From: Massalongia carnosa
Lineage: Eukaryota
Assembly: GCA_965645245.1 (NCBI GenBank)
Contig: OZ287085.1
Span: 62,001-126,000, forward strand
DNA: 64,000 nucleotides
Reading direction: 5' to 3'
Positions within the stretch are counted from its first letter, which is position 1. Every line of letters begins with the position of its first letter. Positions 3,509 through 55,931 of this stretch are shown here, one piece after another. The position numbers were made by a program, and so were the translations under genes. Below the pieces are notes generated by a model. The model made no database searches and was not told the DNA's origin. It was given only the letters and a program-made list of their open reading frames with translations.

Positions 3509-3627
3509 TGTTAAATAAACAGTTGACGGCATAATGTTGAAATTACTACGGAGGTGACTGCTTATAGCAGTCATGGCAGCCTGCAGGGCTGAGCTAGAAC
3601 TAATGGGGCTAAGCGAGTATTCCAACA
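3509..3627. mobile_element. 119-bp solo LTR
   Basis: TGTT...AACA termini flanked by 5-bp TSD GATAG (3504-3508, 3628-3632). It is absent from the paralogous site near 31400, where there is a single GATAG. Confidence 0.85.
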
Positions 3628-8979: not shown

Positions 8980-10238
8980 TACACTCAGACACACCCGGAC
9001 CAATTAATAGCGACCTCCCTTCGTTTTCAACGACCTCCCGCCACGTTCCGAACAGCACCACCGTAGGTGGGCCATTCTCTGCTTGGGGTTGGGAGTTTTT
9101 CCCCTCACTGCTGCCAAAACAAAGCCATTATAGGAGGGGCCCTCAGCAAAACTGAGCGCCAGCAGGGCAGCAGCGAGGGGAGAGTTGCCCAAACATAGAT
9201 AGAAATTATATATATGTTCAGCTGACACGATGGAGCCCGCGAATTACTATATATCTTCAAAGAAATCGTATCGCGTATCAGCACTTCAGTGTGGAATACG
9301 TTCAAGTTAATGGTTTTATGCATAGGACTCTGATCGTGAATACTGCTTTCCGGCAGACACGCTCACAATTAAGGTGTTGATTCATATTAGGCTTAAAGTG
9401 GAGATGAAGTCTTGTCTAATCTTCATGTACATAGCTCGTTCAGCAGATCATTGTCTCATTTCGTCGTAATCATCATTATCATCACTCATGCGAGTCATGA
9501 TGTTATTCTATTAGCGCTTGAACTTTTTTTCATGCAATTCATTTCTCATAGATCACACCATATACATTCATATTAACTGATAGAAGTCATTTCAGGCTAA
9601 ATCAGCAAGTCAGATTTCGATTGTCAGATTAAATGCTTCGCTACTTACCTCCACTGCTGACTCCTAAATGTTTCACCGCCTCAATCACGTTCCTCAACCC
9701 TTCCTCCCTCTTCACAAACGACCAAGACCCCTTCCTCACACTCTCCGAATCAATCCTTTCCTCCAACGCCTGATTCCGGGCCTTGATCTGCTCGTTCACG
9801 AACCGGTCTCTCACACTCCCCGTCATACTCTGAATATGTTGTGGAAGGATGAACTGGGTGGTGTGCGTGGTCCACTACTGCTAGGAGTGCAAGAGAACAA
9901 ACAAACAAGAGAAGAACAGAACAATAGAATAAGGACAATAGCTAGATTGGTCTCTGTATGCCTCGTGCCTCGTGCCTCGTGCCTGTGAACTGTATGTGTT
10001 GATGCTATGTGTTGTAGCTATTGCTACGAGCATGCTTGCTCTATAAGGAAAAGAACTATCTATAACTAAACTAAAAGAAAGACTGTCACCTGACTTCCCC
10101 GCTACCTTTACCGAGTATCAACCGAAAAGAACCAACTCCCGAACCGCTAGCAATTTGAATTTAGAGTATCACCGCTCCACCCCCCTACATAGTTCCCCTC
10201 TCTCTTTAGGTGTCGACCCCTGACACCTATCACTGTTC

Positions 10239-10754
10239 CTACTCCAGCGTTCGCTTCATTCCGGCCTCAGCAAACACTAACTCCTCCTCATCCAGCTCGG
10301 GTCCCGGAGTCGTATCAATGTCATCAGAGATGTGAGGAATAGGCCTGCCATGTGACTCTCGCTTTAACCGAAAAGATGACCTAGTCCCAAAGTCCTCTTC
10401 CTCTGCTTTCTTCACATGCTGAAACATAATAATGGCCTCCTTTAATGTCCGATTCCTCCATTCTCCAACTGCCCGTGACAGTTGGACCATATCCACCTCC
10501 TCAATAACATCTTCTCGTTGAGCTTTGAACTCTTCTTCTTTCATCACCGAGGCCCAGGCATCATTCTGTATGACATAGTCATAATAGTCCACTATGCTAT
10601 CCCCTAGCATATGCTGAAACTCTATTAGCTGCGATTCTATGGTCCTCTGTCCCTCGTATCGGTCTGCTGGGGTCAATGTCTCAAGAAAAGCTAGTGCGTC
10701 TGTCATGTGGTGGAAGCGGTCATTTCCTAGGACAATGACTAATTGGAAAGACAT
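10239..10754 (-). CDS. Extra acidic ORF between integrase and 3' LTR, unknown function
   Basis: 171-aa ATG-initiated ORF in element sense; no motif recognised. Confidence 0.4.
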   Translation of the reverse strand: MSFQLVIVLGNDRFHHMTDALAFLETLTPADRYEGQRTIESQLIEFQHMLGDSIVDYYDYVIQNDAWASVMKEEEFKAQREDVIEEVDMVQLSRAVGEWRNRTLKEAIIMFQHVKKAEEEDFGTRSSFRLKRESHGRPIPHISDDIDTTPGPELDEEELVFAEAGMKRTLE

Positions 10755-11111
10755 GCCAAAAGATGTAAGGCAAGTAAGGTAAGATAAATTGTTCCAAGTT
10801 ATCGAGTAGCTTGCTGACTTTCGCTTAGATAAGAAGTTGAGCTTAGCAGAGATGTTTGCTGATAGGAAGATAGTATATGTGCTGATCAGGTAGGTAGTAA
10901 AAGCTAGATAATTTGCTGAGTTCTGGTAGTATGGAAAAGGTAAAACATGGAGGTGAGGATTCGGAAGATGGCAATTTCGACTAAGGTTGGTGAAGTTTTC
11001 GGTGAATTTTGGTAAGTGTGAAATGAAACTATTCCGAAGGTTCGTGTGCTTCCTCCGCTGACAATATGCATTTTACTAAGGAAATTCGTTCGATATAGGT
11101 AGTCGGATATG

Positions 11112-14100: not shown

Positions 14101-14699
14101 ATCTGGGTCAACACTTCTTTCTCAGCAGACGTCATACTGTCGCCCACTGTCATTCGCTGCAGCCGTTCCGGTGTCAATCGTGAGCCTTTGAATATTGTCG
14201 AGAACTTTGGAATTAGCCAATCAGGGAACTTTTCTGACTTTGGTAGGCCTCTCTCTTTCTCTAGCGCCTTCGCTTTCCAATCTGCTATTCCACCAGGTAT
14301 GGTGCCATCCGACTGGTCAGAATTCACTGGTCGAACCTTGACTGCCTTCCGTTTGTATGCCGTATCAACTCTCACACTACTCCGTCGCCCGAACACCCTG
14401 TTTTGATTGATCGTGTACATGTCGAATTTCCGAGAAAACCTCAGAGCCGAAAGTCCGACCGAGCCAATTGCACGCGACGGTGTGAAGGCGCGAACATAGT
14501 GGTCCATCGCCGCCTCTTCCGCACTAGTCGCTGTAGGAGTTAGGGCTATTTGATTTAATAGGCCGGGCCTGTTAAATGGAATGGAAGATTTATTCTCCGA
14601 TAGTCCAACCCTAAAACTCGACACTTTCGCTCTCTCCAGGTTTTTATTACTGCTACCAGCCATGGACCTGTTCTGCACATGGTGGCTAGCTAGTTTAAA
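11112..14699 (-). CDS. pol: Gypsy-1 Pol (RT-RNaseH-integrase), -1 frame to ORF1
   Basis: IDLFSGYDQ, FLDD, AVDAS, HDESGH..C..C, GLDVV, VDGGPE, QANGMIER and WLGPY motifs. Confidence 0.95.
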   Translation of the reverse strand, partial: FKLASHHVQNRSMAGSSNKNLERAKVSSFRVGLSENKSSIPFNRPGLLNQIALTPTATSAEEAAMDHYVRAFTPSRAIGSVGLSALRFSRKFDMYTINQNRVFGRRSSVRVDTAYKRKAVKVRPVNSDQSDGTIPGGIADWKAKALEKERGLPKSEKFPDWLIPKFSTIFKGSRLTPERLQRMTVGDSMTSAEKEVLTQMLYNREAALSWEFSEMGRVKPEVSPPCKINTIPHEAWQTPSFPLPRALVPMVIEMLKDRLQRGTLEPCHGPYRNPWFIVKKKEKNKYRLINAALDMNKVTIRDANLPPSVDEFSEDFAGCYIASLIDLFSGYDQMELDVHSRDMTAFMTPIGLLRMTSIPMGATNSVAQFVRVVTKILQDHIPNRAKPFLDDIGVKGPKTDYGGEEVAPGIRKYVLEHLMWLDGVLADIERAGCTISGEKSQFCMAGLKIVGFVTDSDGRHPDTAKVIKILEWPICTDASSARAFIGVCVYYRIWILDFAIVAEPIYRLLKKDAAFVWGMEQTEAMDLLKIALTSPPALKTIDYSELAGLIILAVDASLKGWGAVLMQIFDGKRHPIRYESGVWSEVEQRYDATKRECRGVLKALKKTRHWLYGVHFVLETDANVLVAQLNGACTDLPGALIVRWIAWIRLFDFEVKHVAGRKHTAADGLSRRPHTEEEIRAEQQEQDIDDFIDAELNSLRACPISVNSADEVPDEKVLKAGYSDKSERIAAFLTSLQKPVRLNRKEFRAFKSEALRYRVQDGHPYRRNSKNVPSRRVIDSDERKLEILKQLHDESGHRGREGTYRRIADRYWWEQLHDDVKGYVRSCEECQKRDPTRLEEALHPTWVTFMWQKVGLDVVHMPACRGKHYIVMARDDFSGWVEGRALGKATAQNVARFLWEDVICRHGCFGKLIVDGGPENKDAVIELANRYGIKRVVVSAYHPQANGMIERGHRPVVQALSKMTNGGMGKWVDNLPAVLWADRTTVRASTGNTPFDLNSGNEAVLPIELEIPTWRILPWNEVHTTDELLAMRARQIQRRDEDMEETALFLQRQRMEGKETFDTLNNLRSIELTEGQLILLHDTKLDNQHTGKLTFRWLGPYKIQQTIVDKGTYKLCELDGTLLAGTFAGNRLKPFHARQNINLPPIEEPEQHNSQGPTINHGGDEDDRQSMIPPGWPMAVVIPSRRADAMETVEN

Positions 14700-20700: not shown

Positions 20701-21900
20701 CGTAGATAAAGCAAGCGGAGACATAAACAGAGGCTGGCTGAGAAGTAGGCGTCCATCCGACGAACCTCATCTTCGCCGAGGGACTCGCCTTTGACTGTTG
20801 AGCGTGCGGGGCCGTATGAAGAAATATTTTCCACTACTGCGTGAGCAGTGTCATCTGTAATCCGCGCCATGGCGTTCTATGCCTTATTGTCAGGATCTGT
20901 ATCCGTCAATGAATGAGCTGAGTTGAGTATAAGCGCAACGACCAGCTTTGTTTACGGTACGCCTTGAGATCGCGTCTTCAAGGACGGGAGCCACAGGCAC
21001 AGATGTAAAAGGTGATAGTTGGCCTCTCGTATGACCCCGCTCGTACGATTTATGAAATTTGCGGCGAATCTGAGGCTCATCCCGCCGTTTCCACTAAGCA
21101 TCACCTGACCTCAACCTCACACGTGCCATACTAAGCTACGTCTAGCCATAACTTACACTTCCATCATTATTACTTACTAGTTTCTTGACACGATTAGTCA
21201 TAGTCATATACCTAGTGCTAGTTCATGTGACCTCGTATTGCTTCTATTTCTAAGGTTGGCGGAAACACAGCGATCTGCACCTCGCTGGCGCCGTCACTCT
21301 CGCCGGCGCCTCTACCTAGCGCCCCCTTTCGGGCCTTGGTGCAGATCGCGGTGGATACTCCCTCTACCTCTGCGGCTGAGACCTGGAGTGGGTGGGCGGG
21401 TCAAAAACTACTATGCAGTGCTACCTCCGAATCCGAGATGATGAGGAGATGTAGGACTGCTTTGGCCCTCTATATAGCCTCCATCTCCCCCCTGTCATCC
21501 ATCCATCCCTATCCGATCCCCCGTCGTTATCCGAACCAGCTCCTGGCGGATAACCGTGCAAAACCGAAGAGGTCCGGATTTTGCATCACCTGTTGTCCCC
21601 GTCATGCGTGGAGAACCGCTGGTAGCCGATCCGCTGGTGGCCGAATCCGCTGGTAGCCGAATCCGCTGGTAGCCGAATAGCATCGGTCCCGCACTAGCTC
21701 TCGCCATAGACGAACTAGCTAGTTCATGTGACCTCGTATTGCTTCTATTTCTAAGGTTGGCGGAAACACAGCGATCTGCACCTCGCTGGCGCCGTCACTC
21801 TCGCCGGCGCCTCTACCTAGCGCCCCCTTTCGGGCCTTGGTGCAGATCGCGGTGGATACTCCCAAGCCCAAGATGGAAACGGCTCGCGCGGCGATGCTGT

Positions 21901-22916
21901 TTAGGAGGCTGAGGGAGGGTGTTGAAAACGGCGTGAGGTGGCTAAGATGTGGGATTGATGCGTTTGGATATAAAGCTTGTAGGAGTCTGACTTCCACCGG
22001 CCTAGTAATTGAATGTCGTTCTCGCTAAGACCGACTTCCTTGGCCGACGTCGCTGCACCTCTTCGGAAAGAGTGACCTGAATAATTACCTGTTATGCCTA
22101 AGCTCTTAAGCCCTGATCGCATCGCGGTGGTCAAATATTCGCGTGTGAAAGCCTTTTGTTTATAGAATAAAGGGGAGGTTGCAGGTAGTGGAAACCGGGT
22201 GATCAAATTACGAAGGGATTTTACCGCGCAGGCCTCGTCCCCTGATGCGGCTATCGTTAGCGTAATGCCTCGACGAAAGGGGTCGGTTTTGGACGCCGGC
22301 AAGGAGAGGAACAGCTTATCTGCTTCTAAGTGGACGGATTTCCTAGTTAAATGCCATGATTCGAAGCTTGGGTCTGTTAGGTCTCTGATAGTGTACGTAA
22401 ATTCGCCTGCGCGAAGAAATCCTGCGAATGCCAGACAGTATGCTGCGTGTAGAGTGGCCTGCGCGTTGTCGGTTAAGTCCAATCGTTTCACTAAACGAAG
22501 GAGTATGTTTTTCGTAATGGGCATTCGCTCTTTCTTGTCGGCTTCGCCATTCTTTCGCTTTATGCCGGCAATGATTCTATTTAGTACGGGATGGTGAAAC
22601 GTTTCTAGATCCTCAAAGCCCGTGTCGACTTGGCTGGACCGAACTCCGGCTAGATAGGCCTTGATGGTTTTGGGCTGTATTTTGTGTTCTCCTAGCATCG
22701 CTATCCAAGATGACAAAGTCTGTATGGTTGCCGGAAATGGAGTCGCGTTCATTGATATTCTGCAGTGTGTTACATAGCTTCTTCTCCCTGTGTCATACAG
22801 ACTGCGGGTTTTGACTGCCAAGCCCCACCACAGGTATCTAGCTGCTGGTCGGGATAGAGGTATTTCGCTATACCAGCTTTCGGGAGGGTCGCGTGCTAGG
22901 ATTTGAGTAGAAGTTC
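21901..22916 (-). CDS. Ngaro-2 tyrosine recombinase (probably a spliced exon)
   Basis: FLRAGE, SKTDPFRRG, HSFRRGAAT and GRWKSDSYKLY motifs. Confidence 0.93.
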
Positions 22917-24503
22917 CTGTAAATTGGGCCATTTGTTAGCGATTTTCTCCAATTTGCCCCGTGATAGGAGGTCAGCGAGCTCATTAGACTTTGTTGGGAT
23001 CCAACGTATTTCAATCCGAATATCATGAATAGCGGTCAGCATTGCGATTGCCCGAAGGGGCCGCATAGCGTTTCCACGAATAGATGATTTCCTTATTCCT
23101 GACGTGACAGCAAAGTTGTCACAGTGGAAAATCACATGGCTCCCTGCACAAAGGGGGAGCCATTTACGCAAAGCGTGTAATATCGCTGTCATTTCTTTGA
23201 CATTGATGTGAGTTGGCCTAAGCCGAGACGTGAAACGTTCAGAAAGTGCATGCTCAGCGGGCATGGTAAAACTGGTATGATCCTCCACTAGGATGTAGGC
23301 CCCAATGCCGTACCCTGATGCGTCCGTCCAAAGACGAAATTTCTCGCGAGGACGGTCTAACATGCGAATGCCATTCCATTTAGGTAAAAAAAGATGCCAC
23401 CACTGCAGGTCGGCTTTGATATTCTCGTTAATATGAATATGACGCCCACGAGACATGGCTTTTGCGTTAAAAAGACGTCGGAGGAAAGCTCTCCCTGGCA
23501 CTACCACTTTAGCTGCGAATGACAAAAATCCCACCAAGGAGTCTAATTCCTCCCTTCTAATCGATGATTTTTGCAAGGCCTGTTTGACGAGGTCTTTGGC
23601 TTTCTGCAGTTTGTCTGGTGGTAGCCGTGCTTCCATGAGCATAGTATCCAATTCAATGCCTAAGAAATCGATCACATGACCAGTTTTATTTTTCTTTTCG
23701 TTGACTGCGATTCCAAGGTCTTTGCAAAGATCGAAGAAGTACCGAGTGAAAGCTTCCGCTTCAGGATTAGTGCGGCAAACTGCCAAGAAATCATCTAGAT
23801 AATGAAGCACATCATGTTGATTTTGTAAACACATCCAATTTATCCCCTTTGCAAACAAATCGAATAGAAAAGGAGACGTGCGCAAGCCGAAAGGTAGAAA
23901 GCGCTCCATCCAGTAAACATTATCCCATTGAAATCCCAGCAACCACCAGTCGCTTTTAGCCACGGGTATATGGCGAAAGGCATCGGAGAAATCCCTTTTT
24001 ACTAATATGCACCCTTTTCCTTGTTGTCTTATTTTGGCGACAGCGTCATCGAATGTGGGGTATTCCAAGGCCCCCCATTCCTGAGGGATGAAGTCATTTA
24101 CCGACGATCCTTCAGGATGAGATAAATGATGGATACGGCGCCATGTACCATTTGATTTGGGTACGAGACCTAATGGGGATGATATGAACTTGGAGGGAAG
24201 AATATCTACTCGCGTCAATCGTCCCTTATCCCTCTGCTCCTCGACATCTTTAGTGAGTATATCAGGAGCTTCTTTTGCTGATAGTAGATTGGGGCTGAGG
24301 ATGAATTGTTCTGGGCCGGTATACCCAATCTTGGCCCCATACCGAATAATATCAAAAATAGCCTGCTTGTACACGTTATCGGGATGAGTTTCTAGGTGCT
24401 TCTTCCAGCCGGCGAGGATGAGTGGTCCTTGCTGAAGAGCCTCGAGTTTGTCCATCAGTCTGTACGGAAAACCTTCCGCGATATGGTCATATGGGCCGGC
24501 TAG
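22896..24503 (-). CDS. Ngaro-2 RT/RNase H (in frame with gag after TGA)
   Basis: LPFGLRTSP, YLDD, WTDASG, HINVKEM and ADLLSR motifs; uninterrupted. Confidence 0.94.
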   Translation of the reverse strand, partial: LAGPYDHIAEGFPYRLMDKLEALQQGPLILAGWKKHLETHPDNVYKQAIFDIIRYGAKIGYTGPEQFILSPNLLSAKEAPDILTKDVEEQRDKGRLTRVDILPSKFISSPLGLVPKSNGTWRRIHHLSHPEGSSVNDFIPQEWGALEYPTFDDAVAKIRQQGKGCILVKRDFSDAFRHIPVAKSDWWLLGFQWDNVYWMERFLPFGLRTSPFLFDLFAKGINWMCLQNQHDVLHYLDDFLAVCRTNPEAEAFTRYFFDLCKDLGIAVNEKKNKTGHVIDFLGIELDTMLMEARLPPDKLQKAKDLVKQALQKSSIRREELDSLVGFLSFAAKVVVPGRAFLRRLFNAKAMSRGRHIHINENIKADLQWWHLFLPKWNGIRMLDRPREKFRLWTDASGYGIGAYILVEDHTSFTMPAEHALSERFTSRLRPTHINVKEMTAILHALRKWLPLCAGSHVIFHCDNFAVTSGIRKSSIRGNAMRPLRAIAMLTAIHDIRIEIRWIPTKSNELADLLSRGKLEKIANKWPNLQELLLKS

Positions 24504-25580
24504 TCAATCCTTCCTATTGACCGGTGTCCAATTCGGATTGTTACGAGATTGGCTACTTGGGTTGCTATTGTTGGGGGTGTTGCCCCTGCAACTAAGTGCT
24601 GGGTGCTGTCTCCCGCAGTTGCTGCAGACGTGTTGGTATCTGCAGTCTCGGCAGTCCTTGCCTGTGTTATACCGATGGCAAGGGTAGGGCCTTGGAGTAT
24701 TGCTGTTTGAATTGGTTGTGTATCCCCCAAATCCGGTCCGGGTTTGAAGGTTGTTGAGGGGCCTATCGCGTTTAACCAGGTATGTGTTTTCCAAGTCTGG
24801 GTAGCTTTGCCTCCATTTTACGGGGTCGTCCACTCCTTGATACCACAGCGTTCTATGAAATAGCATATGAACTTGCAGCAACGACTCCCATGTGTAGGTA
24901 TTGTGAAGCAAAATCAGCCGGTCCTCGTATTTCATGAAGGCCCTTGCTAGATCTTTGAACAGACTTGGTTGTGCAAAGTGCAATACCGCTTGCCAGTATA
25001 CCAAAAGACAACGAATTAGGTGGGTGATACCCTTGATGTCGCTCAACGATGCGTCATCCTCGCCAGTAATGACCTCCAGACCTTTGCTGATATTGATAGA
25101 TTTCTTCGTAGACTTGCTCAGAGTAACGTCACTGCACATCTTGGCGATATTGATGGGGTCAAACTTATTTTCCAAAATTTGCTTGAAATACAGCTGGTTT
25201 ATGGCCGGAAAGTCACTTGTCAGAGGGAGGATTCTTGGGTCATCCGTACCTTCGCTCTGAAAGGCCTGATTGGTCTGTTGGGATCCCCCATGCTGAAATC
25301 CCGTAGGGGCCTCCTCCACCTCCAACGCGGCCTGTCTGTCGACAATTTCCTTCCTAAGCTTTCTCATTTCGGCCTGGCGCCCCTCTCGTACCAAAATGTC
25401 GCGTTGTACGCGAAGTTCAAGTAGCTCATCAGGGGTACCGGGGCGTGTGGGCCCTTCTTCCGCTGGCTGGCCGGCCTGCATTGTTGCGGAGGTCGGCTGA
25501 GAGTCAGGCACAAGGGGGGTGAGGGGGCCAGTGGGGCCGCTATCGTCGGCGGTGGACGCAGTGCGGCGGGTAGTAGGCAT
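24504..25580 (-). CDS. gag: Ngaro-2 Gag-like ORF1
   Basis: Likely ATG at 25580 (MPTTRR); FDPINIAKMC; C-terminal zinc fingers. Confidence 0.87.
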   Translation of the reverse strand: MPTTRRTASTADDSGPTGPLTPLVPDSQPTSATMQAGQPAEEGPTRPGTPDELLELRVQRDILVREGRQAEMRKLRKEIVDRQAALEVEEAPTGFQHGGSQQTNQAFQSEGTDDPRILPLTSDFPAINQLYFKQILENKFDPINIAKMCSDVTLSKSTKKSINISKGLEVITGEDDASLSDIKGITHLIRCLLVYWQAVLHFAQPSLFKDLARAFMKYEDRLILLHNTYTWESLLQVHMLFHRTLWYQGVDDPVKWRQSYPDLENTYLVKRDRPLNNLQTRTGFGGYTTNSNSNTPRPYPCHRYNTGKDCRDCRYQHVCSNCGRQHPALSCRGNTPNNSNPSSQSRNNPNWTPVNRKD

Positions 25581-26325
25581 TCTGTTTATGGAAGGGAGTA
25601 GAGCGGAGCTAGGTTTATACGTGTTTATCGAAGATGAAGAAGGGAAGAAGGATGGATTGTTCGTTAGGTTGGAAGATTGTTGGATCGGACTCAAAAACTA
25701 CTATGCAGTGCTACCTCCGAATCCGAGATGATGAGGAGATGTAGGACTGCTTTGGCCCTCTATATAGCCTCCATCTCCCCCCTGTCATCCATCCATCCCT
25801 ATCCGATCCCCCGTCGTTATCCGAACCAGCTCCTGGCGGATAACCGTGCAAAACCGAAGAGGTCCGGATTTTGCATCACCTGTTGTCCCCGTCATGCGTG
25901 GAGAACCGCTGGTAGCCGATCCGCTGGTGGCCGAATCCGCTGGTAGCCGAATCCGCTGGTAGCCGAATAGCATCGGTCCCGCACTAGCTCTCGCCATAGA
26001 CGAACTAGCTATTTCAACAATTGGTTACAATATATTACGAAGTATGACAGCGATCGGAGTTAGTACATTGCTAGAATTGGCTAAGCGGATTGGCGATAAC
26101 TGCCTCGTGATTTCGTTCCTCCGGCGTAACATTTACATGAACTTCATCGTGAAACACGCGAATAAAAGTGGCCCTCATTAGAACACCTGATATGAGCTGC
26201 AAATTTATATTTATATACATTCCGCTTTGCGCTTGTGATCGACTTGACACAAATTTTCCACACCTGTGCTTTTGTCGTCACTGCTACCACCCCGCATAGC
26301 TTGGAACGACAAGCCCAATAGCTCC

Positions 26326-28663: not shown

Positions 28664-30944
28664 AACAGTCAAAGGCGAGCCCCTCGGCGAAGATGAGGTT
28701 CGTCGGATGGACGCCTACTTCTCAGCCAGCCTCTATTTATGTCTCCGCTTGCTTTATCTACGCCAGAATCCTCTCTTGAAGGAGCCTCTTAGAGTTCAAC
28801 ATCTCAAGGCTCGTTGGCTGGGACACTGGGGCTCAGATGCAGGTCAAGCTTTCACGTGGATTCATATGAATCGATTGATCAAGCAATATGACTTGAACGC
28901 CCTTTTCATATCTGGATCTGGACATGGCGCTTCTGCTGTGCTCTCTCAGGCCTATCTCGAGGGACTTACTCGGAGGTCTATCCTGATATCACTGAGGATG
29001 TAGAGGGCATGAGGAAGTTCTTCAAGCAGCTCTCCTTTCCCAGGCGGAGTTGATATCCATGCTACTCCTGAGACTCCAGCACGTGTGCATGAGGGCGAGG
29101 AGCTCGTTTACTCGATTTTTCATGCTTTTAGAACTGTGTTCGACAATCCTAATACTATAACCTTGACGATGGTTGAGGATCTTGAAGCGGAGACAAGTTC
29201 TCTAGTCATCAGTTGGCACAACCTTAAGTATCTCAACTTCATCAACGATAATGCAGCTCTTCTGTGTTGCATCTCAGTGAATAAGATCTATGACTCATCG
29301 ATCTGGTCAAGGATAAGCCACAAGGAGTTGGAATGCCTCTTCATCGGCTATGAGTGAACATCATACTTCGTTGAAGGAAGTGATCATGCGATCATGCATC
29401 AAGCAATGGCAGCTATCATGAAGCGTTGCGTCCTCGAGATCCGCAATCAACAAGATCAGGTTCGCGTCTCAGGTAAAGCTTTCCGTTCACACTGACCTAT
29501 GATCATCCTCAGCAGCCCGAAGGGATGGACCGCACCACGACAAGTTGATGATCACTATCTCGAGGGCTTCTAGCGAGCTCATCAGAATTCAGTTATCGAT
29601 GTGGATACCAATCCAAAGCACCTCGCTGTACTTGAATAATGGATGTGTAGCTAGCTACAAGCCGGAAGAAGTCTTCGATGAAGAGGCACGGCTGATTCCT
29701 GAACTGAAGCAACTTACATCAAGCGGTATTCATCGTATGAGTGCGAATTCCGTCGGCAGTGGTGGTGTACTGCAAAGGCGTTAGGTATGCCAGACTTCTG
29801 AGGGTTCAAATTCAATCAAATTATGCCTAGAGTTACAGATGACCCAAGCTTGTTCAATATGACAATCTTCTTGCGAGAACTCCTCGCAGCAAATATGCAG
29901 AATCTGCGCATATTCGGCCCGGACGAGACGGAATGAAACCAGCTTGAAGAGCTGTACAAAGTTTCTAAGAAGGTTTGAATAGGCGATTATATGGACGAGC
30001 ATGCAGATGGCGGAAATCTAGTCTTCAGCGGGCGTATCATGAAAATTCTCAGCGAGCATACAGTTGAAAGATGGCTAGAAGGCTACATCTATTAGGCCGC
30101 CATGGTCTCCTTAAGACCTACAAGTCCTTCGTCCACGTCATTGACTCTATGATCAACCAACATTGCAAATGACTCGAGCAATGCAACGAAGTCGAATGAC
30201 GAGCCAAGGTTTCCTCCCTCAACATCCTCATAACCGCCACAGTTTGGCGACAAGATCACAACGGCTTTACGCACCAAGTTCCTGGTTTCTCGACGTTGTA
30301 GCGAACAAGAGTCCGGAAGTCGTGCGAATCTACCTCCCACCTGAGGGTAACTATCTCCACAGCATCGTAGCAGATAAGCAAAACCACCTACCATACCTCT
30401 CCATGGATGACGCCTTCGCACATTGCACAAAAGGCACTCGGATCTCCAAATACGATTTGTCAATGTGGTCGATCTTTTCAAGCTCATATCCCCAGAACAA
30501 CATTCCCAGGGCCTTAGCGATGTGCAGTACTCCTCTATTTTCGCATCCGACAAGCCTGTGATCTTCAATTGTCATTCCTACCATTGGATGATTCACCGCT
30601 TGATATACAAGCGTCCTGGCGCGGGAGCCAACCTACCTGTTCATGGGTAGAGGGAGAAAGGAAACCTTGACACCCCGCTGAAGCTGGCTTTTCACAATGG
30701 GACCGATAGGTATGGTCTTAGTATCGAGGTCATTGATCGCATGTTACATATTCAGAGTATGACGGGGAGTGTGAGAGAACGATTCGTGAACGAGCAGATC
30801 AAAGCTCGGAATCAGGCGTTAGAGGAAAGGATTGATTTGGAGAGTGTGAGGAAGTGGTCTTGGTCGTTTGCAAAGAGGGAGGAACGTTTGAGGAACGTGA
30901 TTGAGGCGGTGAAACATTTAGGAGTCAGCAGTGGAGGTCAGTAG
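28664..30944 (+). pseudogene. xfp: Phosphoketolase pseudogene (right copy; 5'-truncated, internal deletion near 30439)
   Basis: Same fragments and frameshifts as the left copy; lacks the first ~24 codons. Confidence 0.88.
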
Positions 30945-31789
30945 CGAAGCATTTAATCTGACAATCGAAATTTGACTTGCTGATTCAGCCTGAAATGACC
31001 TCTATCAGTTAATATGAATGTATATGGTGTGATCTAGGAGAAATGAATTGTATGAAAAAGAGTTCAAGCGCTAATAGAATAACATCATGACTTGCATGAG
31101 TGATGATAATGATGATTACGACGAAATGAGACAATGATCTGCTGAACGAGCTATATATGAGAAGATTAGACAAGACTTCATCTCCACTTTAAGCCCAATA
31201 TGAATCAACACCTTAATTTATGAACGTGTCTGCCGTATAGTAGTATTCACGATCACAGTCATATGCATAAAACCATTAACTTGGGCGTATTCCATACTGG
31301 AGTGCTGATACGCAATCCGATTTCTTTGAAGATATATACTTGCCGCCCCATGGCGTTCTAATCACTTGCGGTAAAGTACATAAACCATCGCCAATCCTAT
31401 CACAAGCGAGAATCAGGTTATCAAGCCTCAAAATGTAGTAAATTCTGAACTGCTACAACGGATGAAATCATAATACTGATTTCAATCAGGAGCAAGAGCG
31501 ATGCTTTTCATCGAAGTTGCCAAAACATGTGCAAGAAAATATAACTCCAAGCATTGTTGAGAAGCAGCATAAATTCCGCCTATCATGCAAAATGTGTCTA
31601 TTCTGGCAAGTCAAACGTGGCTCGAGATACAGCAACATCAGGTTCTGAACATTTGGCGGCTCGTTTCCGAAATGCTGCTTCCGAGCTGAAAGATGCAGTC
31701 GTGAACTATGCCGAGTAGAAGATAATCAATTTCAACTATGATTTCACTCGCTATGGCGGGCCTTATCATGATATCAAGACCTGCCGGTC

Positions 31790-32068
31790 ATGAATGACAA
31801 AAGGCTTACAGCGTTCAATGGACACGAAGTTATCTTGAGCATGATCATGGGTGCTAAATTGGTACAGCTGGAGGCACAAGCTCAGCACGGGCGGACAGCG
31901 TTAATATGGGCAGCGGAACTAGACCACGAGAAGGTGGCGGACATGTTGCTGGACAAGGGCGCGGAGACGAATGCTCGAGGGAGAAGGTTTGACGACTTCC
32001 TGCTATTTGGAACAGTTCGACCACACCGCTTAGGCCTTTCTGCTACCGCGGGCGAGTTCAAAACCTAG
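31790..32068 (+). pseudogene. Ankyrin-repeat fragment
   Basis: GRTALIWAAELDHEKVADMLLDKGAETNA ankyrin consensus. Confidence 0.6.
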
Positions 32069-32235
32069 GGGTAGTCGCGTGCGTCAGCGAGCTCGATCGT
32101 TCTGTCACTCATGTTCTGAGCTTTCAGCTTTGGACAAAATAAAAAGTAGCATTCTTACGCTGCTTTGTTCACCAAACGCGCAAACAGTTAAGTTTTAAGG
32201 ATAATAGGATTTAGTTCTGATTTATATGAATCGCT

Positions 32236-33534
32236 TTAAGATTCCACTGTTAAATTCTCCTTCTGCCACTCATTAAGAAACTCAAGCGAAGACTCTGTAT
32301 CAGGATGTTGAGGACCCAATTTGTGTTTTCTTAGCTGAAAACATTCCTTTAGCAGTGAGAGAGCCTTATCATTGCGGCCTTGAGACTTCCACGTGAATGC
32401 AAGGTTGTTCATGCTGGTCAGCGTGTCTGAATGCTCCGTCCCTAGCACCCTCTTTCTCGTCTCCATCACTTGCACCTTCAGCTCTTCGGCCTCCGTCCAT
32501 CGTCCTTGATTCCGATACGTCGACGCAAGGTTGTTCATGCTGGTCAGCGCGTCTGGATGCTCCGCCCCTAGCACCCTCGCACCCGTCTCCATCACTTGCA
32601 CCTCTAGCTCTTTGGCCTCCGTCCATCGTCCTTGATTCCGATACGTCGATGCAAGGTTGCTCATGCTGGTCAGCGTAGAAGGATGCTCCGTCCCTAGCAC
32701 CCTCGCACTCGTCTCCATCACTTGCACCTCTATCTCTTCGGCCTCCATCCATCGTCCTTGATTCCGATACGTCGACGCAAGGTTGCTCATGCTGGTCAGC
32801 GCGTCTGGATGCTCCGCCCCTAGCACCCTCGCACTCGTCTCCATCATTTGCACCTCCAGCTCTTCGGCCTCCGTCCATCGTCCTTGATTCCGATACGTCG
32901 ACGCAAGGTTGCTCATGCTGGTCAGCGTGTCTGGATGCTCCGTCCCTAGCACCCTCTTTCTCGTCTCCATCACTTGCATCTCCAGCTCTTCGGCCTCCGT
33001 CCATCGTCCTTGCTTCGAATACGTCGACGCAAGGTTTCTCATGCTGGTCAGCGTTTCTGGATGCTCCGTCCCTAGCACCCTCTTTCTCGTCTCCATCACT
33101 TGCACCCCCAGCTCTTCGGCCTCCGTCCATCGTCCTTGATTCCAATACGTCAACGCAAGGTTGCTCATGCTGGTCAGCGTGTATGGATGCTCCGTCCCTA
33201 GCACCCTCGCACTCGTCTCCATCACTTGCACCTCCAGCTCTTCGGCCTCCCTCCATCGTCCTTGATTCCGATACGTCGACGCAAGGTTGCTCATGCTGGT
33301 CAGCGTGTCTGGATTCTCCATCCCTAGCACCCTCTTTCTCGTCTCCATCACTTGCACCTCCAACTTTTCGGCCTCCGTCCATCGTCCTTGATTCCGATAC
33401 GTCGACGCAAGGTTGCTCATGCTGGTCAGCAAGTCTGGATGCTCCGTCCCCAGCACCCTCGTACTCGTCTCCATCACTTGCACCCCCAGCTCTTCGGCCT
33501 CTGTCCATCGTCCTTGATTCAAATACGTCGACGC
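32236..33534 (-). pseudogene. Truncated NLR paralogue: TPR array and C-terminus only
   Basis: At least 9 126-bp TPR units and the same C-terminus (..NEWQKENLTVES). Cut by the Copia LTR at 33535; no NB-ARC on the far side. Confidence 0.9.
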
Positions 33535-45563: not shown

Positions 45564-45955
45564 CAAACGCACCAGCTTGCTGGGGGCTAGTGAAGTTGTT
45601 ACCGTGACGGACGGCACCAGGCGTGTAAGCGGGATAGGGCCGGACGCTAGCAGGGAGGTGAAAACTCTTCACCTCCTCCATCCCCCCATCTCTTCTCTCT
45701 TTCCTCATCAACACTCATCAAAAATCGTGTTTCGCTGTTTCTCCCACCCGCCCTCTCCTACACAGTCTGTCGCTTAGATAGATGGAGTATGTCTTGACCC
45801 CAGGGTTCGCATCTACAGCGTCCATGGACCCCGTAGCCTACCCATTGCGGCTCCGTACCCGGCGCGGACGGCGCACGAACGGTGTCATGCCACACCCTAG
45901 GGTCAGGACTTTGCCAAACACTAGAATAGCAATAAACACAAGGTGGCTGCGTTTC
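45564..45955 (+). mobile_element. Solo A-spacer-B remnant of a fourth Ngaro family
   Basis: Termini AAACGCA...TGCGTTT; CCTCATCA motif; C-rich spacer with 17 bp identical to the Ngaro-3 spacer; GGAGT-stem-GCCAAAC B structure. Confidence 0.8.
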
Positions 45956-46810
45956 ACTAAGCCATAGCAGCAACGAATCAGGGACCTGAAACGAAATAGT
46001 AGCCATTTCTCGTTAGCTCTAGATTCCGCTGTCGCATAAGTCGCTGTCGCCAGGAGTGAAGCAATCCAGATTAAGCCTTTCGCTAAAGTGACGATAATTC
46101 CAAATAAGGTAAAGTTCGACTTCTTCGCCCCACAGCAAATCTTTTGAAACTTTTGATTGGTCTTTTTCCGACTTTTTGACTTCCGTCAAGCCGTCGAGAC
46201 CAAGCTAACTCCACCTTTAAACAGGAAAAAGAAAAACTCTGTAAAATTTGGGCCAAGGTCTGTGTCCTACCCCCTTTTTTCTCACACAATATCTTTCGGG
46301 GTCAAACGGATTCCCACTTTCTTTCGCTCGAAAACATACTCGATAATTCCTCAGAACTCTTGCTTCTGCAGAACAACCTCAAAGGGTCATCGCACCGTGG
46401 TCGCCAATGAGAAGGGGTAGTCAGGGGTGGTGCGTAGCTAGATGACCTCGAGGTGACAGAGAAAGCAAACAGAAAACACAGGTGCTAACAACAAGAACTC
46501 TGGACACAACAAGCACCGAAACATGAACTCTGACTCTCCCAAACTCGATAGATTGTATATGTGACTATCTCTGTATGAAAAGCTGTCCGTCTGGACTCCT
46601 ATCTATAAAGAAATGCATGGTCCCCGGAAAACCCCCTGCCGCTCCGCCTCCTAGCACCCACCTTCCTTCTCCTGTTGACCCCACCACACTATCGTGGATA
46701 AGCCACCTAAACTTCTGAGCCAAAAGGCTACTATAGTATAGTCCCGTGCCAAAAGTTTGCGGCCCAACCCGTGATTTTCGCGATTTCGCGTTTTCAACTC
46801 ATCAACCTAC

Positions 46811-48059: not shown

Positions 48060-48370
48060 CGATGATGCATGGCCTTCATGCTCACCAGATCTCAACATAA
48101 TCGAGAATATTTGGATGATAATCAAGCAACGAATTGGAAGTTATGAAAATGTCATCATCACTCTGAATGACATGAAGAAAGCCGTTCAGCACGAATGAAA
48201 CGAGGCAAAACAGGAGGAAATTGATAATTTGATAACTACAATGCCTTCTCGTACAAAGCAATGTAAAGACAGAGAATAGAAATGAAGAAAATATCTGTGT
48301 TTTGTTGATGTTCTGTGACTGTTTTTCGAAATTAGGGGGGGGGGACGGACCAATGTCGCCCAACCTTGTA
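48060..48370 (+). pseudogene. Tc1 transposase C-terminal relic
   Basis: Reads WPSCSPDLNIIENIWMIIKQRI from ~48070. Confidence 0.65.
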
Positions 48371-48544
48371 TTATAATAGTCCACCTCGGCGCGAACAACA
48401 ACTTTGACATTGTTGTTCCAGTTACCCAACAATAAGCCCGGTAGAAGGAGTCCGCCGTCAATGACTTCAAGCAATCTTTAAAATCGTTCTATTCTCATAT
48501 GATCAACGGCACCATTGTTTTCTGAACTGCAGTAGATTTTGCAT

Positions 48545-50392: not shown

Positions 50393-51414
50393 TGTTTGGA
50401 GCCGGCAAATGAAGAGGGTTTACAATGTGGCGAGGTGGGAGATTGAGGAGAAGATTTTGGCACGATTCGAATGGTTTTTGGAAAGCTAGGGCTCTTAAAG
50501 ATGATGAGACGAGATATGAGCACAGGCTTGATGAATGAAAGGATGCGGAAGCTGAAGCAGGTATGAGATTGCTTGAGCAGATGGGATCAAGAGTAGGCAC
50601 GAATGTAGAGGTTTCTGATGGTGGGTCTCTTGCATGTGAAAAGGAGTTACTGTTACTTGAAAACTGATTAACATATGACAAGGTGCGAACTCTACCATGT
50701 GAAAGCAGTCGCGATTCCTTCGCCACCAACCCGATAAGGGAGGAGCCACTTGTTGTACCGTACCACCAGTCTTGATTCGCTACCCTGTACAGCAAAAACC
50801 TCAACTCACAATATTACTCCAAGCGTTTATAATTCTTGATTGATTTTTTTTAAAGATTATCTCATTTCATCTCGAGCAATTTCATTTATGAATCAGTCAG
50901 AGTTTCTTCCTGCAGCACTCTAGACAAAAGCTCTTTTCACTCTGCACGCCAATTTGATTTCGCAGATGTTACACTTCTCTTAATCAATCACTAGTTCGGC
51001 TATGCTGAGAGCTAGTGCGTCGTTAATCGAGACAGCTCCCGCTTTGATTTCGGCACCGCATGGATCTCTCGGACGGCATAGATGTCTCAGCACCATAAGG
51101 ATGTCTCAGCACGGCATAGAGATCTTAGCACCGCATCGATCCTTCGGACGACAGTTAGGTTTCGGATTTGTGTATGCCTTGCTATGGGCCGCGTTGATGG
51201 GGCATACTGGGATGGTAGAGTAGGACAAGGAGAATAGGAAGAAGATATATAAAGAGGAGGTCCCAGACGGTATCCCTCATCATCTCACATCTCAAGACAA
51301 TCAAAAAGCATAGCATTTTGATAGCACTGTTTGCAACGTTTTCTTTTCACCCAATTCAAATTTATACAACCACTACACTTAAATTTACTCTATTCAAATC
51401 CCTCTCCTCCAAAA

Positions 51415-52569
51415 ATGGCCACCCGCATCTCCAACAGAATCACCAAGCCTACCTCCCGCACACAAGGCAGCACTCTAGCCCGTACTAGAACTAGAGCTAG
51501 GGCAAATCTAGCCAACTCCAACCCAGACGTCGAAGTACCCGACTCACAAGACAGCACGGCAACCCTTCAAAGCCATCCTCAACCTTCTCCTCTTCCATCT
51601 TCAGCGTTTAATTCCTCCTCACAAGGGCCTGTTATACCGGAAACCCGTTCTCGCACCCCTGATGACATTATTGAACTTAGAGCACAACGCGAAATGTCCC
51701 GCAGGGAAGCCGAGGAAAGAGAAAGAGTAAGTCTTAGGCGGGATATCGAAACCCAACAAGCACGTGCCCGAGACGTGGTCCCTGGGCCAGTAGCCTCAGC
51801 TCAACAGCCTTCCCTATTATTTCCGACATCATTTCCACCGCATCGACCAAACTCATTGTATACAGAAGGTATGGATCCTCGTTTTGTTTCTCTTATGAAC
51901 GAATATCCCACTATCAAGCCCATATGGATAAAGCAAATCTCCGAGAATACGTTTGACCCAATCAACATTACCAAGCTATGTACCGACATCGACGGAGTTC
52001 AAACCAACTCTAGATACGTCAAACTCGGAGAAGGTCTGGAAATCGCCACGAGAGAAGAAGATGGCTCCTTAAAAGATATCAAAGGGATAGTTCATTTGAT
52101 ACGATGTCTCGGGGTATATTGGATGATACTACTACACTTTGCACACCCCGGTCTCCAGATAAACCTGATGAGAGCCTTCATGGCTTATCAGGACCATCTT
52201 CTATCATTATACGCCTTCTACACCTGGGACTCGGTTCGCATCTTTCATTTGAATTTCCACAAATCTCGAGCCTTTCGCGGGATTGACAACCCGGATGGAT
52301 GGAAAGAAATGGACCATTCCTTGGAAAGGCATCTTGTGCGGAAACCGTCCGCTTACTTTGCAAAACCGGACGATAATTCTACGGCTTTCAAAACCTCAGG
52401 CGAAAAGATTATCTGTAAGAAATACAACTATGGCAAAGACTGTCCCGTATATTGTAGATTCCAACATGTGTGTGAGAAATGTGGAAAGCAACATCGGGCG
52501 ATGGACTGTACAAATGGAAAAAATCAACCCTCTAACCCAAATTCGATGCCTCTCCCATCAAGGCAATGA
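51415..52569 (+). CDS. gag: Ngaro-3 Gag-like ORF1
   Basis: ATG 51415 (MATRISNRITKP); FDPINITKLC; C-terminal zinc fingers. Confidence 0.87.
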   Translation: MATRISNRITKPTSRTQGSTLARTRTRARANLANSNPDVEVPDSQDSTATLQSHPQPSPLPSSAFNSSSQGPVIPETRSRTPDDIIELRAQREMSRREAEERERVSLRRDIETQQARARDVVPGPVASAQQPSLLFPTSFPPHRPNSLYTEGMDPRFVSLMNEYPTIKPIWIKQISENTFDPINITKLCTDIDGVQTNSRYVKLGEGLEIATREEDGSLKDIKGIVHLIRCLGVYWMILLHFAHPGLQINLMRAFMAYQDHLLSLYAFYTWDSVRIFHLNFHKSRAFRGIDNPDGWKEMDHSLERHLVRKPSAYFAKPDDNSTAFKTSGEKIICKKYNYGKDCPVYCRFQHVCEKCGKQHRAMDCTNGKNQPSNPNSMPLPSRQ

Positions 52570-54186
52570 CTAACCGCCCCATTCTTATCCATCGCGGAGT
52601 CCTTTCCATACACCTTGACGGACAATCTAACAAAGATCCCACCGGGCCCATTGAAGAAAGAAGGCTGGGAGAAACATTTGGCCAATCACCCGGATCGCAC
52701 TTACACACAAACAATTATCGATATCATCACCTACGGTGCCAAAGTTGGTTATACAGGACCACATCAACTCATTATTAGCGATAATCTTGCCTCTGCAAAT
52801 GAGGCACCGGAAGTTCTTACCAATGACCTCGAAGAACAAATAGCTAGTAATCGGTTGGAGAAAGTCAACAACATTCCTTCTTGCTTTATATGTTCCCCAT
52901 TAGGCCTTGTACCAAAGGCTAACGGTGGTTGGCGGCGAATCCATCATCTATCGTATCCGGAGAGTAGCTCAGTCAACGACCACATACCGGAAGACTGGGG
53001 CTCCCTGGAATATACCAGCTTCGACGAAGCCATTAGGTTGATTGAGCAACGCGGGCCAGGGTGTATTCTTATTAAAAGAGACTTTGCGGACGCTTTTCGC
53101 CACATACCAGTAGCAAAAAGCGATTGGTGGTTACTAGGTTTCAAGTGGCAGGATTCCTTTTGGATGGATAAATACTTACCCTTTGGGCTGAGAACGTCGC
53201 CGTTCCTTTTTGATCTGTTCGCGAAGGGTATCAACTGGATATTGTACAACTGTGGTTGGAAAGACGCTATTCATTACTTGGATGATTTTTTAATAATAGT
53301 CAGCACCGGACCAGATGCTGAAAAGTTTGATCAAGTTTTCCACAACATTTGTAAAGATCTTGGCATGAAAATCAAGCTCGAAAAGAACAGAACTGGAACG
53401 ACTTGCGATTTCCTCGGCATTGAAATCGATACCGCGCTCATGGAAGCACGCTTGCCTTCCGAAAAGTTACTAAAAGCAAAGACCCTAGTATCGGCAGCTT
53501 TGAATAAAAAAGCCATACCCAGGAAGGAACTCGACTCTCTTCTAGGATTCTTATGCTTTGCAGCCAGAGTGGTAAAACCAGGAAGAGCCTTTCTACGCCG
53601 TCTTTTCAATGCTACGGCAAGCGTAACCTCTAAACTAATCCATCTTAACAAGGACATGAGGGCTGATCTTCTATGGTGGCATCATTTCCTACCTAAATGG
53701 AATGGCATACATCTGCTCAACCGTACTAGACATACTATGAGAATATGGACAGATGCGTCCGGCTCATATGGTATGGGCGGCTTTATCCTCAGCGAGGATC
53801 AAAATTTGCATAATATACAAGCAGCCCGGCAGGCTTTTAGCACACGCTTTACTACGCGCCTTAGGGCAAAGCATATCAACGTCAAAGAAATGACAGCAAT
53901 TCTTCAAGCTATGAAAAAGTGGCTACCTATATGCAAGGGTGGTCATTTAATCCTCTATTGTGATAGCTACGCTGTCACGAAAGGAGTGAATAAAACCTCT
54001 ATACGAGGCCAAGCAATGCATGCCCTGCGGGCAATTACAATGCTAGCTGCATTACATGATATCCAGATAGAAGCGCGATGGATATCATCCAAAGAAAATT
54101 ATATTGCTGATCTCTTGTCTAGAGGACTTTTGAAGAAACTGGCTGACAAAATCCCTCAGTTTCAGGCTCTACCCTCAGCAATATAG
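52570..54186 (+). CDS. Ngaro-3 RT/RNase H (in frame with gag after TGA)
   Basis: LPFGLRTSP, YLDD, WTDASG and ADLLSR motifs; uninterrupted. Confidence 0.94.
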   Translation, partial: LTAPFLSIAESFPYTLTDNLTKIPPGPLKKEGWEKHLANHPDRTYTQTIIDIITYGAKVGYTGPHQLIISDNLASANEAPEVLTNDLEEQIASNRLEKVNNIPSCFICSPLGLVPKANGGWRRIHHLSYPESSSVNDHIPEDWGSLEYTSFDEAIRLIEQRGPGCILIKRDFADAFRHIPVAKSDWWLLGFKWQDSFWMDKYLPFGLRTSPFLFDLFAKGINWILYNCGWKDAIHYLDDFLIIVSTGPDAEKFDQVFHNICKDLGMKIKLEKNRTGTTCDFLGIEIDTALMEARLPSEKLLKAKTLVSAALNKKAIPRKELDSLLGFLCFAARVVKPGRAFLRRLFNATASVTSKLIHLNKDMRADLLWWHHFLPKWNGIHLLNRTRHTMRIWTDASGSYGMGGFILSEDQNLHNIQAARQAFSTRFTTRLRAKHINVKEMTAILQAMKKWLPICKGGHLILYCDSYAVTKGVNKTSIRGQAMHALRAITMLAALHDIQIEARWISSKENYIADLLSRGLLKKLADKIPQFQALPSAI

Positions 54187-55202
54187 GACGCGATCCACCC
54201 CCATCTTGGTACAGTGAGGTACCTCTAGACGAAATCGCAGCACGATACCTCTGGTGGGGCCTGGCCACTAAGACAAGATCTTTATACACAACGGCAAGAA
54301 AGGGATACGTTCTTTACTGTAGGGTAAACCTCAACGCGCCACCATTTCCAGCCAACATCCGGACGCTGTCTTCGTGGATCGCAGCGTTGGGTGAACGACG
54401 CCTGCAACCAAAAACTATTAAGAGCTACTTGACGGGCATAAGATCATGCCAGATAGATATGGGCCTCGGTAATCTCGACGTATTTCATCACCCGGTGTTA
54501 GATCGCATCCTTACTGGCATAAAGCGAAAGAACGGTGAAGCCGAGAAACGTGAAAGGTTACCAATTACTAGAGAGATCTTAATCAAATTGCTAAGTCGTC
54601 TTGATCAAACGAAAGAGAAAGGCGCAAATTTACATGCGGCGTACTGCTTAGCGTTTGCAGGCTTCTTACGAGCCGGAGAATTTACTTACACAACGCAAGA
54701 TGTACTAGACCCAAGCTTTGATCAATGGCACCTCACCAGAAAATCTATTAGGTTCGAAGCAGATCACCTACAGCTCTCTCTACCAGTCTCCAAAACCGAT
54801 CCCTTTCGCCGAGGCATAACACTGACAATTGCGGCTACCAACGATGTTGCTTGTGCACTAGCTTCTCTTACAAATTTATATAGGCGATTCCCAAGTTCTC
54901 CGGCCGCACCACTCTTTAAAAACGGTCAGTCCTTCACTCGAGACTACATTACAACAGCGATGAAATCCACCTTAAGGAACTTGGGCTATATAGGAAATTT
55001 CTCTGGCCACTCGTTCAGAAGAGGTGCGGCAACAACAGCGCGACGGGCAGGACTCACCGAAGACGAGATTCAGATGCTAGGAAGATGGAAGTCAGACGCA
55101 TACAAGCTTTACATACAAACCCACCCCACTTACCTTCTTAACGCCTCAAAACGCCTTCAAACATTACCCACGGAACCTCACAATCCAGTCACTAGGTCCT
55201 GA
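54166..55202 (+). CDS. Ngaro-3 tyrosine recombinase (probably a spliced exon; no upstream ATG)
   Basis: Frame open from 54166 (RDPPPSWYSEVPL..YLWWG); FLRAGE, HSFRRGAAT and GRWKSDAYKLY motifs. Confidence 0.93.
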
Positions 55203-55931
55203 ACAACACCGCAAGCGGGTCGTTCCATGTTGGGGATTGGGAGTCTGTTCACAGCCCAAGGCCTGCGAGAGGGTCTTACATTAGTAGACAGCAAGGCCCT
55301 TATCGAGTCCCCCTCTCGAGGCCGGGGGCTGTGAGCAATAGCCCAAACATACTTAGTAGCAATATAACGAGATTGACACGAACTAGCTAGTTCGGCTATG
55401 CTGAGAGCTAGTGCGTCGTTAATCGAGACAGCTCCCGCTTTGATTTCGGCACCGCATGGATCTCTCGGACGGCATAGATGTCTCAGCACCATAAGGATGT
55501 CTCAGCACGGCATAGAGATCTTAGCACCGCATCGATCCTTCGGACGACAGTTAGGTTTCGGATTTGTGTATGCCTTGCTATGGGCCGCGTTGATGGGGCA
55601 TACTGGGATGGTAGAGTAGGACAAGGAGAATAGGAAGAAGATATATAAAGAGGAGGTCCCAGACGGTATCCCTCATCATCTCACATCTCAAGACAATCAA
55701 AAAGCATAGCATTTTGATAGCACTGTTTGCAACGTTTTCTTTCCCACCCACCCACTCCAGTTCTTCTGTCGCTTAGATAGAGGGAGTCTGTTCACAGCCC
55801 AAGGCCTGCGAGAGGGTCTTACATTAGTAGACAGCAAGGCCCTTATCGAGTCCCCCTCTCGAGGCCGGGGGCTGTGAGCAATAGCCCAAACATACTTAGT
55901 AGCAATATAACGAGATTGACACGAACTAGCT

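Follow-up and report, generated by a model that had tools for sequence, protein, structure and literature searches.

Long terminal repeat (LTR) retrotransposons fix the boundaries of their repeats with short cis sites, the primer-binding site (PBS) and the polypurine tract (PPT), and Tf1 and Tf2 prime themselves. Hepadnaviruses carry a long RNA hairpin, the epsilon stem-loop, in both terminal copies, where the reverse transcriptase (RT) docks. In diversity-generating retroelements (DGRs), cDNA is primed by the element's own template RNA (PMC5703328, PMC6182149). For DIRS-1, the account in PMC7192593 states that the primer is unknown and that an internal complementary region (ICR), a unique non-coding segment near the 3′ end, is required to rebuild the termini. 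Ngaro elements are described in PMC3783388 and PMC8547959 as having the layout A1-ORFs-B1-A2-B2 (ORFs, open reading frames), RT/RNase H, a tyrosine recombinase (YR) and solo AB repeats. We analysed a 64,000-nt stretch of Massalongia carnosa DNA (the window; contig OZ287085.1, positions 62,001 to 126,000), which is transposon-rich and holds four families of YR retrotransposons, E1 to E4. A fifth, distant family, E5 (YR 36–39% identical, more than 60 near-identical YR matches), lies elsewhere in the genome (52 Mb, 25 contigs). The base of a sense-strand hairpin appears to form the 5′ boundary of the B repeat, and a C-run the 3′ boundary of A, an assignment well supported by sequence comparison. 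Hairpin and marks make a real and apparently undescribed cis signal within a known superfamily, and they probably show where copying of RNA into DNA begins and ends; the mechanism outlined below is a proposal. The reading we favour, plausible but short of probable, is that the B hairpin acts on the element's own RNA to set the start of reverse transcription, with the second copy (B2) priming the minus strand in cis and the first (B1) blocked.

A sequence-only reading of the window had proposed that the B repeats share end motifs around long stems of different sequence. All eight arms are present (Table 1). The first stem contains one A-C mismatch, the second is perfect, and the third and fourth contain one G-U each. 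All four repeats start with (G)GGAGT, as had been seen. GCC(C)AA.C and an A/U-rich tail do follow the stem in each, but the motif does not end B, which runs about 40–55 nt past it, to the recombinase junction. The interiors are indeed unalignable: MAFFT aligns only the two end motifs, with a mean column identity of 37% among 13 sequences. Sense-strand RNA folds better than dinucleotide-shuffled controls in all four families (200 shuffles), with z scores of −5.1 (E1), −3.1/−4.0 (E2), −2.4 (E3) and −5.2/−6.0 (E4). Antisense folds are similar (z −2.9 to −6.3), and z alone therefore does not choose the strand. When E4 was scanned in 121 segments, those with B2 and B1 ranked third and fourth, behind two in the RT/RNase H ORF. 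The most stable E4 fold (z −5.6) lies at 53866-54030 (+), inside the RNase H coding part and about 120 nt upstream of the overlapping YR frame; it consists of a 12-bp hairpin and a second hairpin, and is possibly a translation or splicing signal. A loose genome pattern built from the two B end motifs gave mostly noise (298 matches against 230 in a reversed control).

An alignment of 47 YR proteins was used to retrieve 80 metagenome loci (the best 80 of 509). In a YR tree made by a quick method, E1 to E4 fall in an 18-row clade with 14 of these loci. Thirteen clade representatives share GGGAG and CC(C)AA.C around unalignable interiors of 74–130 nt; the E5 interior is about 220 nt. Because the interiors cannot be aligned, pairing was tested directly rather than by a covariance model. 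Each lineage's 24 nt past the 5′ motif were paired with every lineage's 24 nt before the 3′ motif, in a permutation over nine lineages, with four close relatives left out. The mean duplex energy is −27.4 kcal/mol for arms of one lineage and −15.0 for arms of different lineages, and the own-arm arrangement ranks 3 among 362,880 permutations. Eight clade relatives were folded as well; five reach a z of −3 or better, and E5 has −5.4. The proposal of a conserved, covarying cis RNA element, and of significant covariation in a larger set, thus holds by arm pairing for the sense strand of the E1–E4 clade but not for all relatives. The YR and RT alignments found no relative in IMG/VR. Six contigs from bacterial genome bins (L286-L291) carry relatives of the RT, one of them a complete element, and are probably mis-binned eukaryotic DNA.

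Strand preference bears on one alternative, in which the fold acts in single-stranded cDNA as a YR site, like an integron attC. Folds with DNA parameters are stable too (z −2.0 to −5.5), and DIRS-1 cDNA is described as single-stranded (PMC7192593). However, the sense duplex is stronger than the antisense in 9 of the 13 sequences, and wobble pairs favour the sense strand over minus cDNA (35 G-U pairs versus 13), with exceptions to the sense advantage that include three of the window's four families. Insertions also end at a separate palindrome, 30–50 nt past the hairpin. We regard a folded DNA site as extremely unlikely.

Between A2 and B2 lies a unique spacer that the sequence-only reading had missed, as it had the match of hairpin base and B boundary and the unequal basal pairing of B1 and B2. 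In the four window families it comprises a CCCR-repeat run and a small hairpin with a five-base loop, and GGAGT follows. A genome search for this pattern gave 155 matches versus 2 in the reversed control, and 99 of the 100 first-listed belong to these families. Boundaries were compared in E1 to E5 and in 8 of the 11 metagenome loci (among the 80) that contain both B copies, one standing for four near-relatives; for E1 and E3, B1 and B2 were taken from different copies. Identity between B1 and B2 begins at GG or TGG in 14/14 comparisons (13/13 plus a complete element found later), and in the window families this start is the hairpin base. A1 and A2 remain identical up to the first C of the C-run in 8/12 comparisons and to within 1 nt of it in 11/12, E5 being off by 3; two elements have no A1, C-run starts were placed by eye, and about nine lineages are independent. 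Spacers range from 38 to 333 nt and yet the run stays at the A end, which ties it to A and not to B2. In the distant locus L197 the 333-nt spacer (5817-6149) is made of purine-rich tandem repeats, with the C-run still at the A end. Read on the minus strand, the C-run contains four tracts of two or more G in 12 of 13 lineages, and its G4Hunter-type score is among the top 1.3% of scored segments. Since unrelated A and B repeats keep ending on the same marks, we infer that the marks are re-set in every copying round, much as primer sites define the ends of LTRs.

The two B copies differ at the hairpin base in four of the five families. Watson-Crick basal pairs number, in B1 and B2 respectively, 5 and 2 in E1, 7 and 2 in E3, 5 and 3 in E4, and 6 and 4 in E5 (a tally without L197, whose fold is unsupported). 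In B2 the pairing of the 3′ arm stops at the boundary; in B1 it continues past it. DGRs prime in this way, and cis-priming at the B2 base is therefore the simplest fit for the window's clade. The proposed pathway would begin with an RNA that spans A1 to the A/U-rich tail of B2 (step 1). The B2 3′ arm would fold back onto the first GG of B, with pairing that stops at the B boundary, and RT would extend this arm, via a 2′-OH or after a nick as in DGRs, copying the spacer, A2, B1, the ORFs and the start of A1 (step 2). At B1, the flank would add 2–5 pairs and bury the same position, so that priming there, which would yield a copy without promoter, is disfavoured (step 3). The internal B1-A2 block would then serve as template for the left part of A1, still missing, and for the whole of B2, and the G-rich minus-strand copy of the C-run would stop plus-strand synthesis, fixing the A boundary (step 4). 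Finally, the ends would join and the recombinase integrate the product at the palindromic B/A junction (step 5).

The same marks might instead be read from the C-run. Here the C-run would be the minus-strand start, as a primer-binding site or by de novo or protein-primed initiation. The hairpin would be an epsilon-like RT docking site, or would direct a cut at the B1 start, and an A+B strong-stop DNA would be transferred to B2 on another RNA. The A repeats stay identical up to the first C, much as an LTR ends at its PBS, the G-rich B1 flank is able to pair with the C-run in the window families, and one strong-stop product would account for both boundaries. But covariation between B1 flank and C-run is absent across lineages (permutation p 0.87 for 13, 0.74 for 8), a failure of the simplest form of this scheme, priming by the G-rich flank, and distant elements have no G-run beside B1. 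The scheme also depends on a defined stop or cut where B1 begins, and nothing that would cause one was found. No TGG-starting tRNA primer-binding site was found next to the repeat, the spacers starting with the C-run (host tRNAs were outside the comparison); B starts with TGG in only some families, and the window has no tRNA gene. We consider a start at the C-run rather unlikely. Across lineages, none of three pairings covaries (B1 flank with C-run, B start with spacer, B1 flank with B; p 0.49–0.89), and pairing of spacer with B is borderline (p 0.08–0.10).

A role in priming, packaging or processing had been suggested for the stems; the comparisons support a cis structure, and priming is the role we favour among the three. 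If the hairpin were only a packaging or Gag/RT-binding signal, with no part in fixing ends, its conserved base and free interior would suit a protein that reads the base of the helix, and an A-G apposition beside GG/CC pairs recurs within the clade. Such a signal accounts neither for the coincidence with the boundaries nor for the B1/B2 difference in basal pairing, and we give it little probability. A self-cleaving ribozyme, made of B with or without the spacer and cutting 5′ of GG to define the RNA end, would account for the B boundary, and PMC11620745 describes minimal ribozymes built from two short segments that flank a free stem-loop. Yet Rfam recognised nothing in the window (best E 2.1) or at 10 related loci, whether hammerhead, HDV-like, twister, twister-sister, pistol, hatchet or hairpin, and only 7 columns are invariant among the 13 clade sequences, mostly basal pairs. 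There is no conserved multi-nucleotide core, in line with the earlier remark that no known ribozyme core is recognisable. The internal loop varies in length and sequence, whereas twister-sister-like loops of 5 and 6 nt are highly conserved, and E5 has a C-G pair in place of A-G. A ribozyme reading of B is thus unlikely, with a very slim chance of being right.

The sister clade (46 rows, of which 32 were analysed, near-duplicates and cut loci being left out) has a different fold. There, a helix joins the B1 flank to the 5′ portion of B, and 7 of its 15 pairs show double changes. Over the structure as a whole, double-change cells number 22 versus 10.1 in shuffles (0/500), and slid controls reach 13. 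RNAalifold picks another, non-covarying helix set, which makes the topology of this fold tentative. An HDV-like reading was set aside on inspection, the loop being too short and without CC. In the distant loci L184, L286 and L171, the B1 flank and the spacer can each pair with the same B segment; by eye, L184 and L286 differ by one double change in this pairing. From these comparisons the boundary marks appear to be general among these fungal elements, and the long hairpin to be one clade's solution, shared with E5.

The structure could instead control 3′ end formation, by having the poly(A) signal in the tail of B ignored at B1 and obeyed at B2, with the C-run as an upstream enhancer bound by poly(C)-binding proteins. 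The covarying helix of the sister clade, between B1 flank and B, speaks for this. A/U-rich elements, which we take to resemble fungal poly(A) signals, follow the hairpin in all four families. The same signal stands in both B copies, and a context switch would therefore be needed. But 3′ end control leaves unexplained why repeat identity starts at the hairpin base and ends at the first C, and why the C-run stays next to A whatever its distance from B2. The tail is also outside the hairpin in both copies. We hold this account to be improbable. Polyadenylation, packaging, a ribozyme and a folded DNA site are all less able than cis-priming to explain the boundaries.

The copies themselves were compared. 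In all 24 E4 copies that contain both repeats (A2 has an odd length in two of them), the first 148 nt of B2 are the same as in B1; among 12 complete E5 copies, 11 have the two repeats identical throughout. Re-copying of B2 from B1 would produce this pattern. The deviant E5 copy (L232, identical to L278; contig C16, about 1091000-1095600) has B1 variants that occur in other copies, and is a candidate recombinant, or may have been re-assembled from a short copy and a solo repeat. The youngest copies are mostly complete (E4 24/29, E5 8/11), whereas older E5 copies are short, A-ORFs-B (37/38). This argues against the short form as a direct product of copying; once inserted, elements apparently lose the 3′ A2-spacer-B2 block quickly. 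Solo A-spacer-B repeats are common, at 19 of 28 scored E1 B matches and 11 of 23 E5 spacers. Contigs from four sequencing runs, compared with the E4 end, contained no variant in B and no joint, and were uninformative.

Several observations weigh against cis-priming from B2. Only 6 of 9 rows have their own arm as best partner, and the hairpin is weak, no better than chance, in three of the eight clade relatives folded; the distant L197 has no supported hairpin (z +1.1). In E2 the two copies have equal counts at the anchor used (2/2), and the relatives L132, L136 and L178 show only three basal pairs in B1. The short hairpin at the B start of the sister clade has no covariation (476 and 57 of 500 shuffles match the observed pairing), so fold-back at GG is not general. 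Four full G3 tracts occur in only 1 of 13 C-runs. No purine tract before B1 was found in the distant elements, which leaves the plus-strand primer unexplained. Identity of B1 and B2 in very young copies is weak evidence and counts little, and the deviant E5 copy has a B2 without two variants of its own B1. DIRS-1 cDNA, as described in PMC7192593, is single-stranded and mostly linear, which misfits step 4 if Ngaro is alike.

A general form of cis-priming, in which Ngaro elements self-prime from a fold-back hairpin at the spacer/B2 junction, flank pairing silences B1 and a cDNA G-quadruplex sets the A end, is possible but doubtful. If true, a eukaryotic retrotransposon would start copying without a tRNA, in the manner of a DGR, and the DIRS order would have its first primer mechanism in the literature searched. 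For YR retrotransposons, whose primer is given as unknown in PMC7192593, two nucleotide-exact marks, GG where B begins and the C-run where A ends, give two predicted positions. The young, intact, multi-copy E4 and E5 families make native cDNA likely to be detectable.

Under cis-priming, a parallel would be the DGR RNA of Bordetella phage BPP-1, in which the priming RNA is non-coding, lies downstream of the template and belongs to the molecule that is copied. DGR-type pairing up to the edge of the copied template holds by sequence in E1 to E5 and is unsupported in the sister clade and in L197. Unlike BPP-1, these elements have another RT class, no Avd, no mutagenesis and no sequence or Rfam match, and their priming is a proposal. 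As in Tf1/Tf2 and the PBS/PPT of LTR elements, short cis sites would fix the boundaries beside an LTR-like block, here B1-A2, but both marks flank one internal block, with no tRNA site and no general purine tract. Covarying primer/template pairing of the Tf1 type is absent (p 0.74–0.87) for the B1 flank with the C-run, the only candidate primer tried. The spacer and the DIRS-1 ICR are alike in being unique, non-coding and close to the 3′ end. The ICR has complementarity to inverted terminal repeats, whereas the Ngaro spacer has none to the element ends, and the internal B1-A2 junction would take that part. Like hepadnaviral epsilon, the B hairpin is long, present in both terminal copies and a candidate RT docking site; unlike epsilon, it shows no conserved bulge template, and Pfam gave no evident terminal-protein domain in the RT ORF.

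The four families share with the Ngaro superfamily its layout, RT/RNase H, YR and solo AB repeats. Split direct repeats A1-ORFs-B1-A2-B2 are complete in E2, E4 and E5; E1 is a short form and E3 a solo form. The earlier assignment to four Ngaro families with B repeats therefore stands, with only two complete in the window (E1 lacks A2 and B2; E3 is a solo A-spacer-B). Pfam recognised RVT_1 and RT_RNaseH in the E2 and E4 ORFs and Phage_integrase in E4 only, weakly (E 4.6e-4); the HSFRRG and GRW.S columns are conserved among the 47 YR relatives. Pfam found no rve or protease in the E2 and E4 ORFs, nor the adenine-methyltransferase family, whose absence separates Ngaro from DIRS and PAT. Layout and domains thus agree with Ngaro; the quick YR tree contained no named Ngaro reference elements. 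Published Ngaro accounts, in the parts available, treat the repeats as sequence repeats only: "primer" and "secondary structure" are absent from the available text of PMC3783388, as are "primer", "hairpin" and "secondary structure" from that of PMC6681497. No description of the B hairpin, the spacer or the fixed boundary marks was found in the literature searched, partly available as text; the founding Goodwin and Poulter Ngaro papers, possibly with a replication model, were outside this search.

Table 1. YR retrotransposon features in the window
Feature	Positions	Strand	Description
E1	3690..9247	+	Ngaro-type short form A1-ORFs-B; no A2, spacer or B2
E1 B1 flank	9083..9091	+	G/T-rich; extends basal helix to 5 Watson-Crick pairs, versus 2 in B2 copies
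E1 B repeat	9092..9247	+	GGAGT 9092-9096; arms 9100-9115 / 9166-9181; 3′ motif 9187-9194; z −5.1
E2	21217..26016	-	Complete: A1 (about 25691-26016), gag-like ORF, RT/RNase H, YR, B1, A2, spacer, B2
E2 B1	21718..21863	-	Arms 21771-21782 / 21839-21850; G/T-rich flank 21864-21871
E2 palindromic B1/A2 junction	21712..21725		Presumed recombinase site
E2 unique spacer	21363..21400	-	C-run 21385-21400 from exact A2 end, then small hairpin with GCWNA-type pentaloop
E2 B2	21217..21362	-	Arms 21270-21281 / 21338-21349
E3 solo A-spacer-B	45565..45959	+	A about 45565-45742; B 45784-45959, arms 45791-45800 / 45900-45909
E3 spacer	45743-45783	+	C-run 45743-45758; hairpin 45766-45782
E4	50991..55931	+	Complete, very young; A1 50991-51346, gag-like ORF, RT/RNase H, YR
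E4 B1 flank	55230-55238	+	
E4 B1	55239-55388	+	Arms 55247-55257 / 55326-55336; 3′ motif 55341-55348
E4 palindromic B1/A2 junction	55380..55393		Presumed recombinase site; about 30 nt past hairpin 3′ motif
E4 A2	55387..55742	+	TATA-like box; initiator-like CCTCATCA at 55671-55678 (putative promoter)
E4 unique spacer	55743..55781	+	C-run 55743-55758 at A2 end; small hairpin 55765-55781
E4 B2	55782..55931	+	Arms 55790-55800 / 55869-55879; 3′ motif 55884-55891; z −6.0

E4 insertions end inside the palindromic B1/A2 junction motif, which its sister family E2 shares. The E1 B repeat continues past the 3′ motif as an A/U-rich tail with a recombinase half-site at its end. The E4 YR has 46 near-identical matches in the genome. 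The initiator-like CCTCATCA occurs at 51275-51282, 55671-55678, 45703-45710 and 3854-3861, some 35–100 nt upstream of the A end, in A repeats that are otherwise unrelated. From this recurrence, A2 should drive a short spacer-B2 RNA of about 200 nt.

A Tc1/mariner transposon is inserted in E1 near the 3′ end of the YR gene. The window also contains NACHT/TPR and MBOAT genes, which point to a fungal genome. Two inverted paralogous copies of an NLR-like gene with TPR repeats (126-bp unit) lie at 1367-3508 and 31397-33534, and at 9248-9839 and 30746-31338; E1 and a gypsy element have hit one copy, and a copia element has hit the other. A 119-bp solo LTR with TG...CA ends lies at 3509-3627, and its full element, with long internal sequence, is present in L047 and L066.

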